A DNA stretch of 4,026 bases from a virus (taxonomy: Duplodnaviria; Heunggongvirae; Uroviricota; Caudoviricetes): the IMG/VR virus record IMGVR_UViG_2698536418_000015; one strand, 5' to 3'. How positions within the stretch are numbered: the stretch's first letter is position 1; each line of letters begins with the position of its first letter. Shown here one piece after another: positions 1 to 3,564 of this stretch. The notes below the pieces were generated by a model that was not told the origin of the DNA, made no database searches, and saw nothing but the letters and a program-made list of their open reading frames with translations. The position numbers and the translations under genes were made by a program.

Positions 1-89
1 CCATCTTTCTGGACAGACACCACCCGTTTACCGGTTAATAAATCAAGGCGCGCCTGACGCAGCGCCTGCAGTTCAGCGACTGTAACCAT
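1..89 (-). CDS. W: Head-tail joining protein gpW-like, N-terminal part only; the gene continues past the window start
   Basis: Minus-strand ATG at 87..89 follows GGAGGAG (revcomp of about 93..99). Translation MVTVAELQALRQARLDLLTGKRVVSVQKDG matches the remembered start of lambda gpW (…LMTGKRVATVQKDG…). Sits immediately downstream of the terminase large subunit, as in lambda (Nu1-A-W), and overlaps its 3' end by 17 nt. Confidence 0.85.
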   Translation of the reverse strand, partial: MVTVAELQALRQARLDLLTGKRVVSVQKD

Positions 90-1943
90 TCACTCCTCCG
101 GACAGCTTCGCTGCCAGTTCTTTCAGGGTTGGCCGGGTCGTCTCTTCTTCCCGGGATTTTGCCAGTACAGCCAGATCAAGCTGCCAGCGTTGCACGGACA
201 CACGTAATGCCGCGTAGGCATACACCAGGCAGTCCAGCGCTTCGTTACGCCGCTTTTTGTTATCCCACAGCAGACGCATCTTTCCTTTTTCCCACTTCTC
301 CACCAGCTCTTCCGCCACCAGTTGCTGCGCCTCTGTCTGCGAAAAAATCTCCGGATCATCAGGAAAACGGATGGCATACGACGTGGCTTCATCCGCAGGC
401 GTGGGATCGGCTTTCATACGGGCATAGAGAATTTCTTTTGCGGTATCCGTTCCCACTTCACACAGATACACGCCCCGCTGATTGCGGGTTTTTGGCATGG
501 TGATCACCGGCTTGCCATAGACAGATGCGCCTTTTACCGGCAGCACCCGGAAAACACCGTGTTTTTTTGATCTCTGATAAACAATTTCACCATCGATCCC
601 CCCGGTGTCCCAGCAGACACGGGAAATAGTCATTTCGGTGCCATCCGCATGGCGGTATTTTTTGTTGATCGCCGCATCCACACGTAACAGCGTCTCTTCC
701 TCATCAGGACGCCCCATAATGATGATTTTATCCACCAGAAAGGCTTCCTCTCCCGGAGCCCATCCCCAGACATACATCTCAAAACGGTTTCGCTGCGAGT
801 CAATGCCCGCCGTCAGATAAACCACCCGGGCAGGCACCGCCGCCGTGTAACGCACCACCTTATCCATCAGTACCTGGTGATCGAGTTTTTCGCCCACGGC
901 CTCTTCCCAGGTCTCGCCCAGCGTGGTGTTCACAAAGGTTTTCAGGCCGTTGGGATCTTTCAGTGCATCCAGCCAGTCATAGACAATCTGTACCCAGGTG
1001 GTGAACGGACTGTACGCCGTCCAGATATGGAACGTGATGGAGCGCGGCGGCGGAATTTCATCACCCCGGGCGCTGAAAAACGTCAGACCGTCACGGGTCC
1101 ACATGCCCGTGTTTTCACAGATCCACCGCCCGTTGCTCTGGTCAAGCTCAGACTGATGGATCACGCAGCCATGATGTTCACAGAGGTAGAAAACACTTTC
1201 AGGGCTGTCCTTCTCCCATTTAAGCCCAAAAGGCGTGGACTCATCGCCAAATTTCAGATACTGCTCCTCCCCACAGTGCGGGCAGGGCACATAAAAACGC
1301 ATAAAATGCGCCGACTCGTTAGCGGCTTTTTCGATCTGGCAGGTGCCTTTGATTTTAGGCGTCGAGCCGCGAATGGATTTTGGCCACACCGACCCCTCAA
1401 TACGCTTATCCCCCAGCAGGGTTGGCGAGCCCTCTTTTTCGACATCCGGCTCGAACGAGGAAAGTTCGTCATAGCAGACCACGTCCACGGATTTTTCACG
1501 GTAGTTTTTGGCGGCAGCGCCGCCCNNNNNNNNCCCAGCCATGGGGAAAGGTCTTTCAGGCATGGCACGTTCCGAATCGTCGCCTCCACGTGAGACTTCA
1601 TAAAATCTTCAGCGGCAGAATCCGTGGGCTGAAAAAGCAGACTGTTTCGGGATTTATGCTCAATAAAATACCCGACCACCCCCAGCAACATCTTTGTATA
1701 GCCAACACGGGCAGATTTAATCAGGTTAACCGTGCGAACCTGGTCGTTACCCATACAGTTCATAATGGCGATCTGGAATGGCAGCGTTTTCCATTCTCCC
1801 TCACCATATGAAGATTCTTTAGGCAGATAATAATTTTGATCAGCCCATTCAACTGCCGTCATTGGTACAACCCTGACCAGAGGCTGCAGCGCAACCGAAA
1901 CGGCAGCCATCATATTATTCAGTTGTTGCTCTGATATATTCAT
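73..1943 (-). CDS. A: Terminase large subunit (lambda gpA family); reading frame interrupted by an 8-N gap at 1526..1533
   Basis: The N-terminal part (ORF 1254..2000, true ATG at 1941..1943 giving MNISEQQ…TAVEWADQNYYLPKESSYGEGEWKTLPFQ…SARVGYTKMLLGV…FIEHK) and the C-terminal part (ORF 73..1563: GGAAAKNYREKSVDV…FLGDKRIEGSVWPKSIRGSTPK…CPHCGEEQYLKFG…FHIWTAYSPFTTWVQIV…FVNTTLGETWE…YLTAGIDSQ…WGWAPGEE…RVCWDTGGID…SKKHG…KGASVYGKP…WDNKKRRNEALDC…) are colinear with lambda gpA as remembered. The two parts are in different frames only because of the N run. Stop TGA at 73..75. Confidence 0.95.
1526..1533. other. Run of 8 ambiguous bases (assembly or masking gap) inside the terminase large subunit gene
   Basis: Literal nnnnnnnn in the sequence. 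Flanking codons give …LKDLSPWL on one side and GGAAAKNY… on the other. Remembered lambda gpA has about 20-25 residues between these two motifs, so the gap probably stands for roughly 60-70 nt of unresolved sequence. Confidence 0.9.
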
Positions 1944-2424
1944 CGAGTAAATCCGGTAATTTATCCCCTGCCCGCGCACACTGATTTGCCCCCTTCGCAA
2001 TAAGGGTTTTCAGATGGTCAAGATGGCGCGGTGTTAAATCAGGAAACTGTCGCTGCATGGATAAAGGGATGGAATCAAGCGTACTGGATAACGCCATTGC
2101 CAGCTTACTGAGGGCAAAAATACAGAACCCGGTGTCAATAAGTTTTCCTTTTGACACCTCATTTTTTAACTGCTGTGTAACAGCCTGTTCTGCTGTCAGT
2201 TCCCATCTGGCAATAAGCAATTTCTCCTCATAGTCGTCTTCGCTATCGCCATCAGGCACATCGTTTTTACTTCTCCTCAGATACGATATGTAAAAATCGC
2301 GCCAGGCATCCAGATCCAGTTGCCCTCGCTTATTCGATATCGGGGCACCCGGCAATTTCTGCAATCTGCGAAGCTGGCGATCGGTCAGACTTAAATGCCT
2401 GGCAACTTCAGTCTGCGTAGCCAC
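1915..2424 (-). CDS. nu1: Terminase small subunit (Nu1-like), with a divergent N-terminal winged-HTH DNA-binding domain and a lambda-like C-terminal gpA-interaction region
   Basis: C-terminal half (TGFCIFALSKLAMALSSTLDSIPLSMQRQFPDLTPRHLDHLK…LPDLLDEYI) matches lambda Nu1 as remembered (TAFCTFVLSRIAGEIASILDGLPLSVQRRFPELENRHVDFLK…IPGLLSEYI). N-terminal roughly 60 aa (ATQTEVARHLSLTDRQLRRLQKLPGAPISNKRGQLDLDAWRDFYISYL) is HTH-like but unlike lambda. First codon is GTG (2422..2424) directly after an in-frame stop, with GAGGTGAGGA upstream. Start lies 196 nt from cosN (lambda 191) and the gene overlaps the gpA start by 29 nt, as in lambda. Confidence 0.9.
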   Translation of the reverse strand: MATQTEVARHLSLTDRQLRRLQKLPGAPISNKRGQLDLDAWRDFYISYLRRSKNDVPDGDSEDDYEEKLLIARWELTAEQAVTQQLKNEVSKGKLIDTGFCIFALSKLAMALSSTLDSIPLSMQRQFPDLTPRHLDHLKTLIAKGANQCARAGDKLPDLLDEYIRATTE

Positions 2425-2470
2425 TCCTCACCTCGCAAAAACTCTCACCTCACAATCACAACAAAACCGG

Positions 2471-2482
2471 TCATGTCCGGTT
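2471..2482 (+). repeat. cosB R-like element, copy nearest Nu1 (R1 position): TCATGTCCGGTT
   Basis: Exact 12-nt direct repeat of 2501..2512. Embedded in AACCGGtcatgtCCGGTT, which has local dyad symmetry. Lies about 138-149 nt from cosN, comparable to lambda R1. Confidence 0.6.
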
Positions 2483-2500
2483 TACATGTCTGTTTTTTGT

Positions 2501-2512
2501 TCATGTCCGGTT
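2501..2512 (+). repeat. cosB R-like element (R2 position): TCATGTCCGGTT
   Basis: Exact 12-nt direct repeat of 2471..2482, about 108-119 nt from cosN. Separated from the third copy by an AT-rich spacer. Confidence 0.6.
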
Positions 2513-2558
2513 CACAGAAGACCTGTTTTTATATTTTTCATATAGTTAACTTGAAGAG

Positions 2559-2570
2559 AAACCGGACATG
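2559..2570 (-). repeat. cosB R-like element (R3 position), inverted copy: plus strand AAACCGGACATG, revcomp CATGTCCGGTTT
   Basis: Reverse complement matches the 11-nt core of the other two copies. About 50-61 nt from cosN, comparable to lambda R3, and inverted relative to the R2-position copy across an AT-rich spacer, as with lambda R3/I1/R2. Confidence 0.6.
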
Positions 2571-2607
2571 GATCCCGGAAAATTTTCATAAATAGCGAAA
2601 ACCCGCG

Positions 2608-2619
2608 AGGTCGCCGCCC
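2608..2619 (-). other. cosN cohesive-end sequence; the minus strand reads GGGCGGCGACCT, the lambda 12-nt 5' overhang
   Basis: Plus strand 2608..2619 is aggtcgccgccc, the reverse complement of GGGCGGCGACCT. It is preceded in phage orientation by …CCGTTACG (plus 2620..2627), matching the lambda right terminus as remembered. Expected staggered nicks are between 2619/2620 on the minus strand and 2607/2608 on the plus strand. Confidence 0.9.
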
Positions 2620-2631
2620 CGTAACGGCCCG

Positions 2632-2650
2632 GATCGCCGGAAAGGACCCA
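2632..2650 (-). other. cosQ-like element (needed for cos cleavage at the end of packaging in lambda)
   Basis: Revcomp of about 2636..2650 is TGGGTCCTTTCCGGC, matching the GGGTCCTTTCCGG segment that sits at the same distance from cosN in the lambda right end, as remembered. Exact boundaries are uncertain. Confidence 0.5.
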
Positions 2651-2654
2651 CGAA

Positions 2655-2671
2655 ATGATAATGATTATCAT
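2655..2671. repeat. Perfect 8-bp inverted repeat with a 1-nt centre: ATGATAAT g ATTATCAT
   Basis: Read directly from the sequence. The same palindrome is present at the lambda right end as remembered. Function unknown; a possible protein-binding site. Confidence 0.7.
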
Positions 2672-2825: not shown

Positions 2826-3059
2826 ATGTCATCAAAGAACAGAACCCGCAGAACAACAACCCGCAACATCCGATTTCCAAACCAGATGATTGAACAAATT
2901 AACATCGCTCTTGTTCAAAAAGGGTCCGGGAATTTCTCAGCCTGGGTCATTGAAGCCTGCCGCCGGAGACTGTGCTCAGTACAAAGAGTTTCGCCTGAAG
3001 CAAACAAAGAAAAGAGTGACATTACTGAATTGCTCAGAAAACAGGTCAGACCAGATTGA
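2826..3059 (+). CDS. Small ribbon-helix-helix-like DNA-binding protein (77 aa), homolog of the conserved lambda right-end ORF; possibly YlcI/DUF3950-like
   Basis: ATG at 2826 with GGGGA about 8 nt upstream. The N-terminal 50 aa (MSSKNRTRRTTTRNIRFPNQMIEQINIALVQKGSGNFSAWVIEACRRRL) are nearly identical to the remembered lambda right-end ORF (MSTKNRTRRTTTRNIRFPNQMIEQINIALEQKGSGNFSAWVIEACRRRL…). The pattern basic tail, RNIRFP strand and two helices is RHH-like. The C-terminal roughly 27 aa are unrelated to lambda. The YlcI/DUF3950 family assignment is from memory. Confidence 0.8.
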   Translation: MSSKNRTRRTTTRNIRFPNQMIEQINIALVQKGSGNFSAWVIEACRRRLCSVQRVSPEANKEKSDITELLRKQVRPD

Positions 3060-3116
3060 AGCAATTTAGATAATCGTGCAGACTACGCCCCCTCATATCA
3101 CATGGAAGGTACTACA

Positions 3117-3527
3117 ATGGCTCAGGTTGCCATTTTTAAACAAATATTCGATAAAGTGCGAAATAATTTAAACTATCACTGGTTTTATTCTGAACTAAAA
3201 CGTCACAATGTCTCACATTACATTTACTATTTAGCCACAGAGAATATTCATCTTGTTCTTGAAAACGATAATACGGTTTTAATAAAAGGACAGGGTAAGG
3301 TTGTAAATGTAAGATTTTCAAAAAATAAATGCCTTATAGAAGCCACCTTAAAAGGATTCAAATCAGGAGAGTTATCATTTTACGAATACAGGAAAAATCT
3401 TGCTACAGCAGGGGTTTTCAGATGGATTACAAATATCCACGAAAACAAAAGGTATTACTATACCTTTGATAATTCATTACTCTTTACTGAGAACATTCAG
3501 AACACTACACAAATATTTCCGCACTAA
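3117..3527 (+). CDS. AT-rich moron gene encoding a hypothetical 136-aa soluble protein; possibly DUF1398 (YbcV/YdfO-like), family assignment unverified
   Basis: The ORF is open from 3102, but the ATG at 3117 has a GGAAGG Shine-Dalgarno 7 nt upstream (3104..3109) and is the likelier start. About 30% GC (counted on 3121..3240) against about 58% in the terminase region. No obvious hydrophobic segment. Motifs HWFYSEL and RYYYTFDN. Inserted between the lysis cassette and cos, where lambdoid phages carry morons. Confidence 0.75.
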
Positions 3528-3535
3528 ATCATAAC

Positions 3536-3564
3536 GTCCGGTTTCTTCCGTGCCAGAACCGGAC
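3536..3564. other. Hairpin: 8-bp perfect stem GTCCGGTT (3536..3543) / AACCGGAC (3557..3564) with a 13-nt loop, 9 nt after the moron stop codon
   Basis: Arms are exact reverse complements. No U-rich tract follows on the plus strand; on the minus strand it is followed by GUUAUGAUUUA. Could be an RNA stability or termination element in either direction, but it is not a canonical intrinsic terminator. Confidence 0.35.

Follow-up and report, generated by a model that had tools for sequence, protein, structure and literature searches.

The stretch of viral DNA analysed here (4,026 nucleotides, from a virus of the Caudoviricetes; hereafter the window) carries on its minus strand, at 2649..2465, what its sequence identifies as the cos site of a lambda-like prophage of E. 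coli. The reading that best explains all of the data, to which we give a probability of about 0.8, is that of a lambda-type cos with a distinct, exchangeable recognition module and, probably, a distinct packaging specificity, this being the property that determines which DNA molecules a terminase loads into capsids. The site is a feature of an ordinary kind and reveals no new mechanism; one point of interest is the apparent pairing of one small-subunit residue with one base pair of the recognition repeats.

Organisation of the cos site

Coordinates within the site are given as nucleotides from the cohesive end, reading along the minus strand, with coordinate 1 at window position 2619. In this reading cosQ comes first, followed by cosN, I2 and repeats in the places of R3, R2 and R1 on either side of an IHF-like spacer, and the genes for the small and then the large terminase subunit lie directly downstream, a location like that in lambda. 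The cosQ heptamer GGGTCCT (2643..2649, minus strand) is found at -30..-24 from the cohesive end, the same as in lambda. The cosN core is represented by the 12-nt cohesive end GGGCGGCGACCT (2608..2619, minus strand), which has only one exact match in the window and is common to the window, lambda, 21 and 434. It is followed by the I2 segment (2575..2607, minus strand; coordinates 13-45), with 100% identity to lambda, and divergence between the two starts at base 46. On the other side of cosN, 210 bp that include cosQ are approximately 87% identical to the right end of lambda. Judged by these sequences, the cutting and termination parts of the window cos are of lambda type.

Downstream of I2 are exactly three exact copies of the repeat CATGTCCGGTT. 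The first occupies the R3 position (2560..2570, minus strand; coordinates 50-60), the second the R2 position (2502..2512, plus strand; coordinates 108-118) and the third is at 2472-2482 (plus strand; coordinates 138-148); the second and third copies, being on the plus strand, both run opposite to the first. The third overlaps a fourth copy, CATGACCGGTT (2475..2465, minus strand; coordinates 145-155), which differs from the repeat by one mismatch, such that the third site as a whole is a palindrome, AACCGGACATGACCGGTT (2465..2482; coordinates 138-155), made up of an R2-oriented exact copy and an R3-oriented copy with one mismatch. With up to two mismatches allowed, the window contains 8 matches to CATGTCCGGTT against 1.0 expected, a number reached in none of 200 shuffles, and the 8-mer core GTCCGGTT is present five times against an expectation of 0.07. 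A further, degenerate copy, CATGTCTGTTT (coordinates 125-135), was discounted as a site, being unconserved even among close variants.

The AT-rich spacer between the R3- and R2-position repeats holds an IHF-like core, TAACTATATGAAA (2536..2548, minus strand; coordinates 72-84), which is the counterpart by position of lambda I1 (TAACTTAATGTTT, 74-86). A scan of the window with the IHF consensus gave a match count no better than chance, with two mismatches in TAACTATATGAAA, and the assignment is made because of its position and its conservation in relatives rather than from the scan of the window. Two short open reading frames that overlap the cos site (2395-2595, plus strand, and 2546-2671, minus strand) were treated as spurious.

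The initial annotation of this DNA had described a lambda cosN, a lambda-identical cosQ-like segment, a lambda-identical run of roughly 45 nt inside the left end, and three copies of a repeat, one of them inverted across an AT-rich spacer. Each of these elements was recovered at the position and with the identity given above, including the distances of the three repeats from cosN; to the description must be added the orientation of the site, all of which is read along the minus strand, and the fourth copy overlapping the third.

The small subunit gene (1915..2424, minus strand) encodes 169 amino acids from a GTG start at coordinate 196, compared with a start at 189-190 in the database records of 21 and 434, and the Pfam domain Phage_Nu1 covers residues 49-150 only. 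In BLAST comparisons only the C-terminal half of the protein aligns, with 46% identity to lambda Nu1 and 40% to 21 gp1, and the N-terminal domain gave no alignment to either protein. The large subunit gene, of the gpA type (73..1943, minus strand), is split into two frames by 8 Ns at 1526-1533. When these are replaced by the corresponding 66 nt from strain DEC5E an intact frame of 642 amino acids results, and the large subunits of relatives contain both GpA_ATPase and GpA_nuclease domains.

Occurrence in E. coli and integrity of the prophage

Part of this site has been published before as a putative cos. Asadulghani et al. (2009) aligned the putative cos and Nu1 of prophages Sp4 and Sp14 of the O157 Sakai strain with those of lambda (PMC2669165, Fig S8). 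The window small subunit is that of Sp14, once errors in the machine-read text of the figure are allowed for, and the Sakai prophages have in common with the window the 169-residue small subunit and the sequence of cosQ, cosN and I2. The aligned cos sequence in that figure runs as far as ...GGGATCCATGT, where the R3-position repeat begins, and the figure marks cosQ, cosN and an IHF site only, with no cosB repeats, covariation or specificity class (PMC2669165). No description of the window's cosB class was found in the literature searched, and a search for CCGGACATG or CATGTCCGG returned only papers on p53 response elements. On the evidence of its sequence, we regard the site as a real and complete lambda-type cos with a distinct cosB and recognition module.

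The window cosB is present at a coverage of at least 80% in 1147 of 5426 complete E. coli genomes (~21%), with 100% identity in O157:H7 strains. Among 50,697 phage records it was found only in the inducible phages PhiR12_1 to PhiR12_5, which have a small subunit 99.4% identical and a cosB 91.8% identical to those of the window; a literature search for a paper on PhiR12 found nothing relevant. Related DNA is present in most complete E. coli genomes, and the best match to the window is in the O55:H7 strain DEC5E (99.1%). In DEC5E (locus L025, 3562-4865) an IS3-family element interrupts the large terminase gene at the equivalent of window position ~560, with the cos site intact. The DEC5E prophage copy is thus defective for packaging, which means that individual prophages of the window type can be defective.

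Many E. coli lambdoid prophages are defective, and among the alternatives to our reading the one that survives best is that the window cos belongs to a decayed prophage as an inactive relic, and is now neither cut nor packaged in its source genome. We consider this unlikely, though a serious candidate. The insertion in DEC5E would fit such decay, as would the disruption of the Sp4 nu1 gene by an insertion sequence (PMC2669165), and the window's own large-subunit gene is unreadable across the 8 Ns; however, the frame is restored by the 66 nt of a relative, and every subsite of the cos is intact and has identical copies in many genomes, the O157:H7 match in cosB being perfect. Even defective prophages with a window-type cos are packaged in trans: Sp4 DNA was recovered in DNase-resistant particles, which the authors credited to the terminase of Sp14 acting on an identical cos (PMC2669165). 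Decay would in any case concern the activity of one prophage and not the identity of the site, for which a lambda-type cos with its own recognition module is the reading that we retain. Since approximately one in five complete E. coli genomes, and several O157:H7 prophages, carry this cosB class, knowledge of its recognition sites should allow better prediction of cross-packaging among co-resident defective prophages. Such cross-packaging is a documented route of virulence-gene transfer.

Covariation of the repeats with the small-subunit N-terminal domain

A scan of species-representative genomes with the small subunit yielded only four loci, two of which were matches to the C-terminal part alone and two of the N15/Monarch class. 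Relatives were then obtained through a protein database followed by contig look-up. This gave full-length relatives with 60-80% identity from Klebsiella, Salmonella, Citrobacter, Enterobacter, E. coli and metagenomes. Upstream DNA was collected for 11 full-length relatives and for four closer E. coli or phage variants, giving 15 related loci from Escherichia, Klebsiella, Salmonella, Citrobacter, Enterobacter and a metagenome.

The only parts conserved across the 15-locus alignment are cosQ, cosN, the I2 core, the first two repeats and the IHF-like core; the sequence between these parts is scrambled. The cosQ heptamer sits inside a block, GGGTCCTTTC, that is invariant at 15/15 loci, the right half of cosN is variable, and the I2 core TTATGAAAATTT is kept in all related loci. 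The spacer core is conserved as TAA....TTGA, and two of the loci (L014 and L015) have a perfect match to YAANNNNTTGATW (TAACCAATTGATT) at the same place in the spacer as the window core. The two conserved repeats are found at offsets of 19 and 78 from the I2 anchor, within 1 bp, at 16/16 loci. The third copy is confined to the window group, E. kobei (L019) and, in a displaced position, Klebsiella (L014), and is absent from the nine other relatives. Conservation within the family is thus limited to the first two copies, and the third appears to be an optional accessory site. The nine relatives without it (L016-L018, L020-L024) have a shorter cosB with two repeats only; in six of these the small-subunit start is ~40-50 bp nearer to cosN, and in three the spacing is unchanged. 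Two-site and three-site architectures thus both exist within one small-subunit family.

The R3-position repeat is invariant across the 16 loci except at one position, which is either G or T, and at every locus the R2-position repeat is in the same G/T state. This base tracks residue 20 in the recognition helix of the small subunit. Where residue 20 is Arg (helix T(D/E)RQLRRLQK), both sites read (C/G/A)ATGTCCGGTT, and where it is Asp or Asn (RRLRDLQK, RWLRDLQK, RQLRNLQK or RQFRNLQK), both read A(T/C)TTCCGGTT, such that Arg20 goes with ATGTCC and Asp/Asn20 with A(T/C)TTCC. All 15 relatives fit this pattern without exception, and few independent events may lie behind it.

The small subunits are mosaic with respect to the two repeat classes. 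Klebsiella P0010, a member of the other repeat class, shares 94% identity with the window protein in the C-terminal domain but only 65% in the N-terminal domain. N-terminal identity is approximately 80% within a class as against 69% between classes, and C-terminal identity has no class pattern. The N-terminal domain, unlike the C-terminal domain, follows the repeat type; the DNA-binding domain therefore travels with cosB as a joint module, apart from the part of the protein that contacts the large subunit. The recognition part of the system, comprising the repeats and the N-terminal domain of the small subunit, would then be a separate, exchangeable unit. The swap of a specificity module suggested in the initial annotation is supported by this pattern, in which the N-terminal domain and the repeats change together and independently of the C-terminal domain.

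The N-terminal 58 residues were modelled as a winged helix-turn-helix with a pLDDT of 84.8, in the order strand, helix (residues 4-10), helix (15-22), wing and helix (38-54). The fold search was made with the N-terminal domain alone, as the low-confidence C-terminal half of the full-length model blurred the result. The matches (TM 0.55-0.73 overall) were to terminase small-subunit DNA-binding domains and to MerR/Xis domains, none of them with a significant E-value (all at least 0.28) because the domain is short. They included a terminase small-subunit DNA-binding domain (7lw0, TM 0.61-0.63), the small-subunit chain of a TerS-Rpp complex (6hn7_B, TMq 0.73) and lambda gpNu1 (1j9i, TMq 0.64); the other best matches were MerR and excisionase winged helix-turn-helix domains. 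A PDB sequence search with the small subunit gave nothing meaningful. Profile alignment of the domain with lambda and 21 using hhalign was marginal (E 0.02-0.03) but in the expected register, with window residues 16, 19, 20 and 23 opposite lambda/21 residues 17, 20, 21 and 24. In the lambda/21 pair, specificity is known to depend on residues 20 and 24 (PMC4669245). The pairing of Arg20 with G, and of Asp/Asn20 with T, would parallel the difference between phage 21 (R21, with G at bp 56) and lambda (N21, with T at bp 56). As an apparent match of one residue to one base pair, it offers a simple and testable model of how terminase specificity evolves, in parallel with lambda/21.

By analogy with lambda, the small subunit would bind the inverted repeats at 50-60 and 108-118 as a dimer through its predicted N-terminal winged helix-turn-helix, with IHF bending the AT-rich spacer to bring the two repeats together. 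The bound complex would anchor the gpA-type large subunit on cosN, which it would nick with a 12-nt stagger to give the 12-nt cohesive ends. As the initial annotation proposes, these would also be the physical ends of the virion DNA; indirect support for cutting at this cos comes from the published recovery of Sp4 DNA in DNase-resistant particles (PMC2669165). Packaging would then proceed toward the terminase genes, and cosQ, cosN and I2 would act in termination at the next cos.

Comparison with other cos classes and other roles for the repeats

The R-site core of the window, CATGTCCGG, differs from those of the known lambda-like classes, which are CGTTTCC in lambda and 434, C(G/A)TGTCGG in phage 21, GGTTGTTGTTT in N15 and CAGATCC(G/T)TT in Gifsy-1. 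In their GenBank annotation phages 21 and 434 have R3 at 50-65, I1 at 74-86, R2 at 107-123 and R1 at 150-166. The statement in the initial annotation that lambda R sites differ in sequence from the repeats but are similarly placed is correct in both parts, and needs the addition that the repeats share CATGTC with R2 and R1 of phage 21. Its assignment of three R-position elements is right for the R3 and R2 positions; the third element is optional, and its orientation is that of R2 and not of lambda R1.

With lambda the window shares cosQ, the 12-nt end, bases 13-45, the order and spacing of the subsites and a gpA-type large subunit. It contains no CGTTTCC repeats, having ATGTCCGGTT as its R core instead, its third site is not that of lambda, and its small subunit has 169 residues in place of the 181 of Nu1. 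With neither the lambda core nor the Nu1 helix present, the window would fall outside lambda packaging specificity. K-12 DLP12 (nohD), by comparison, has a lambda-type cosB.

Phage 21 follows the same principle as the window, cosQ and cosN being kept and cosB exchanged together with the small-subunit N-terminus, and its R core CATGTCGG is the closest of the known classes, resembling CATGTCCGG in part with CATGTC common to both. The window could therefore be imagined to carry a phage 21-type module, the two terminases recognising each other's cosB and no separate class existing. The match extends to CATGTC..GG in R2 and R1 of 21 (TTTCATGTCGG), and the centre-to-centre spacing of R3 and R2 is ~59-60 bp in both. 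However, the R sites of 21 (C(G/A)TGTCGG at 53-60, 112-119 and ~155) lack the extra C of the window core, and the window core is ~3 bp nearer to cosN than its counterpart in R3 of both lambda and 21. The shift also weighs against our own reading, the distance from cosN to R3 being reported as critical in lambda (PMC4669245). The recognition helices also differ, being TDRQLRRLQK in the window and DPRTIERWQS in 21, and the N-terminal domains are related at most through the marginal profile alignment described above, which has an E-value of 0.02 for 21. Changes at two base pairs and two residues suffice for a more than 1000-fold discrimination between lambda and 21 (PMC4669245), and with differences of this kind we judge mutual recognition to be improbable; the criteria of core sequence and helix place the window apart from 21 in its predicted specificity.

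The N15/Monarch class likewise combines a lambda-like cos with an R sequence and a small-subunit helix of its own, and it includes tripartite, Monarch-like as well as simpler forms, just as the window family has three-site and two-site members. Its R sequence, GGTTGTTGTTT, is nevertheless unrelated to the window repeat and its small subunit begins MAVLLNKSDMASS, so that by sequence the window does not belong to N15/Monarch specificity either. Two loci, from E. albertii (L012) and an Escherichia sp. (L013), have at ~900-1140 a lambda cosN followed by three copies of GGTTGTTGTTT in forward, inverted and forward orientation, a cosB of the tripartite N15/Monarch type. Their small subunit starts MAFLLNKSDMASS, and its C-terminal part (query residues 26-169) is 71% identical to that of the window.

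The packaging specificity of the window is thus probably distinct from those of lambda, 21 and N15. A broader proposal is that it represents a fourth, experimentally separable lambda-like specificity, divided into sister classes by the G/T and Arg20/Asp-Asn20 pairing, shuffled among at least five enterobacterial genera and setting which of the many co-resident E. coli prophages cross-package one another, those of O157:H7 included; to this we would give even odds.

That the repeats are operators of another DNA-binding protein, or hairpins or terminators within the late-operon leader, is very improbable: the terminator-like third site and the two more GTCCGGTT copies lying 0.9 kb away past a DUF1398 gene (both described below) would suit such a role, but the conserved copies are 58 bp apart over an AT-rich spacer, which makes a compact hairpin impossible, their distance from cosN varies by no more than 1 bp, they covary in sequence with the helix of the small subunit, and the distant pair is not tied to the small-subunit class of the window.

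The palindrome of the third site, AAACCGGACATGACCGGTTT, is followed by TGTTGTGATT (2464-2483, minus strand), and together they resemble a terminator hairpin immediately before the small-subunit gene, with a 7-bp stem, then a T-rich tail, and a terminator-like score. This hairpin might modulate read-through into the late operon, either besides or instead of binding the small subunit.

The two additional copies of GTCCGGTT, at 3536-3543 (plus strand) and 3557-3564 (minus strand), form an inverted pair, 21 bp from centre to centre, just past the stop of the DUF1398 gene. The left arm of the pair recurs after ybcV in K-12 DLP12, next to a cos of lambda type, and CFT073 and K-12 show no conservation of the right arm, hence the lack of a tie to the small-subunit class of the window. 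The predicted RNA fold is not significant (z -1.2). The pair was rejected as a terminase site on these grounds, and is probably a gene-end hairpin unrelated to the terminase.

The DUF1398 (YbcV/YdfO-like) gene itself (3102-3527, plus strand) is preceded by a YlcI/YnfO (DUF3950) gene (2826-3059, plus strand). Both lie between the lysis genes and cos, as they do in DLP12 and Qin of K-12. In the PhiR12 phages these two genes are absent from that position, and Rz is found directly before cos.
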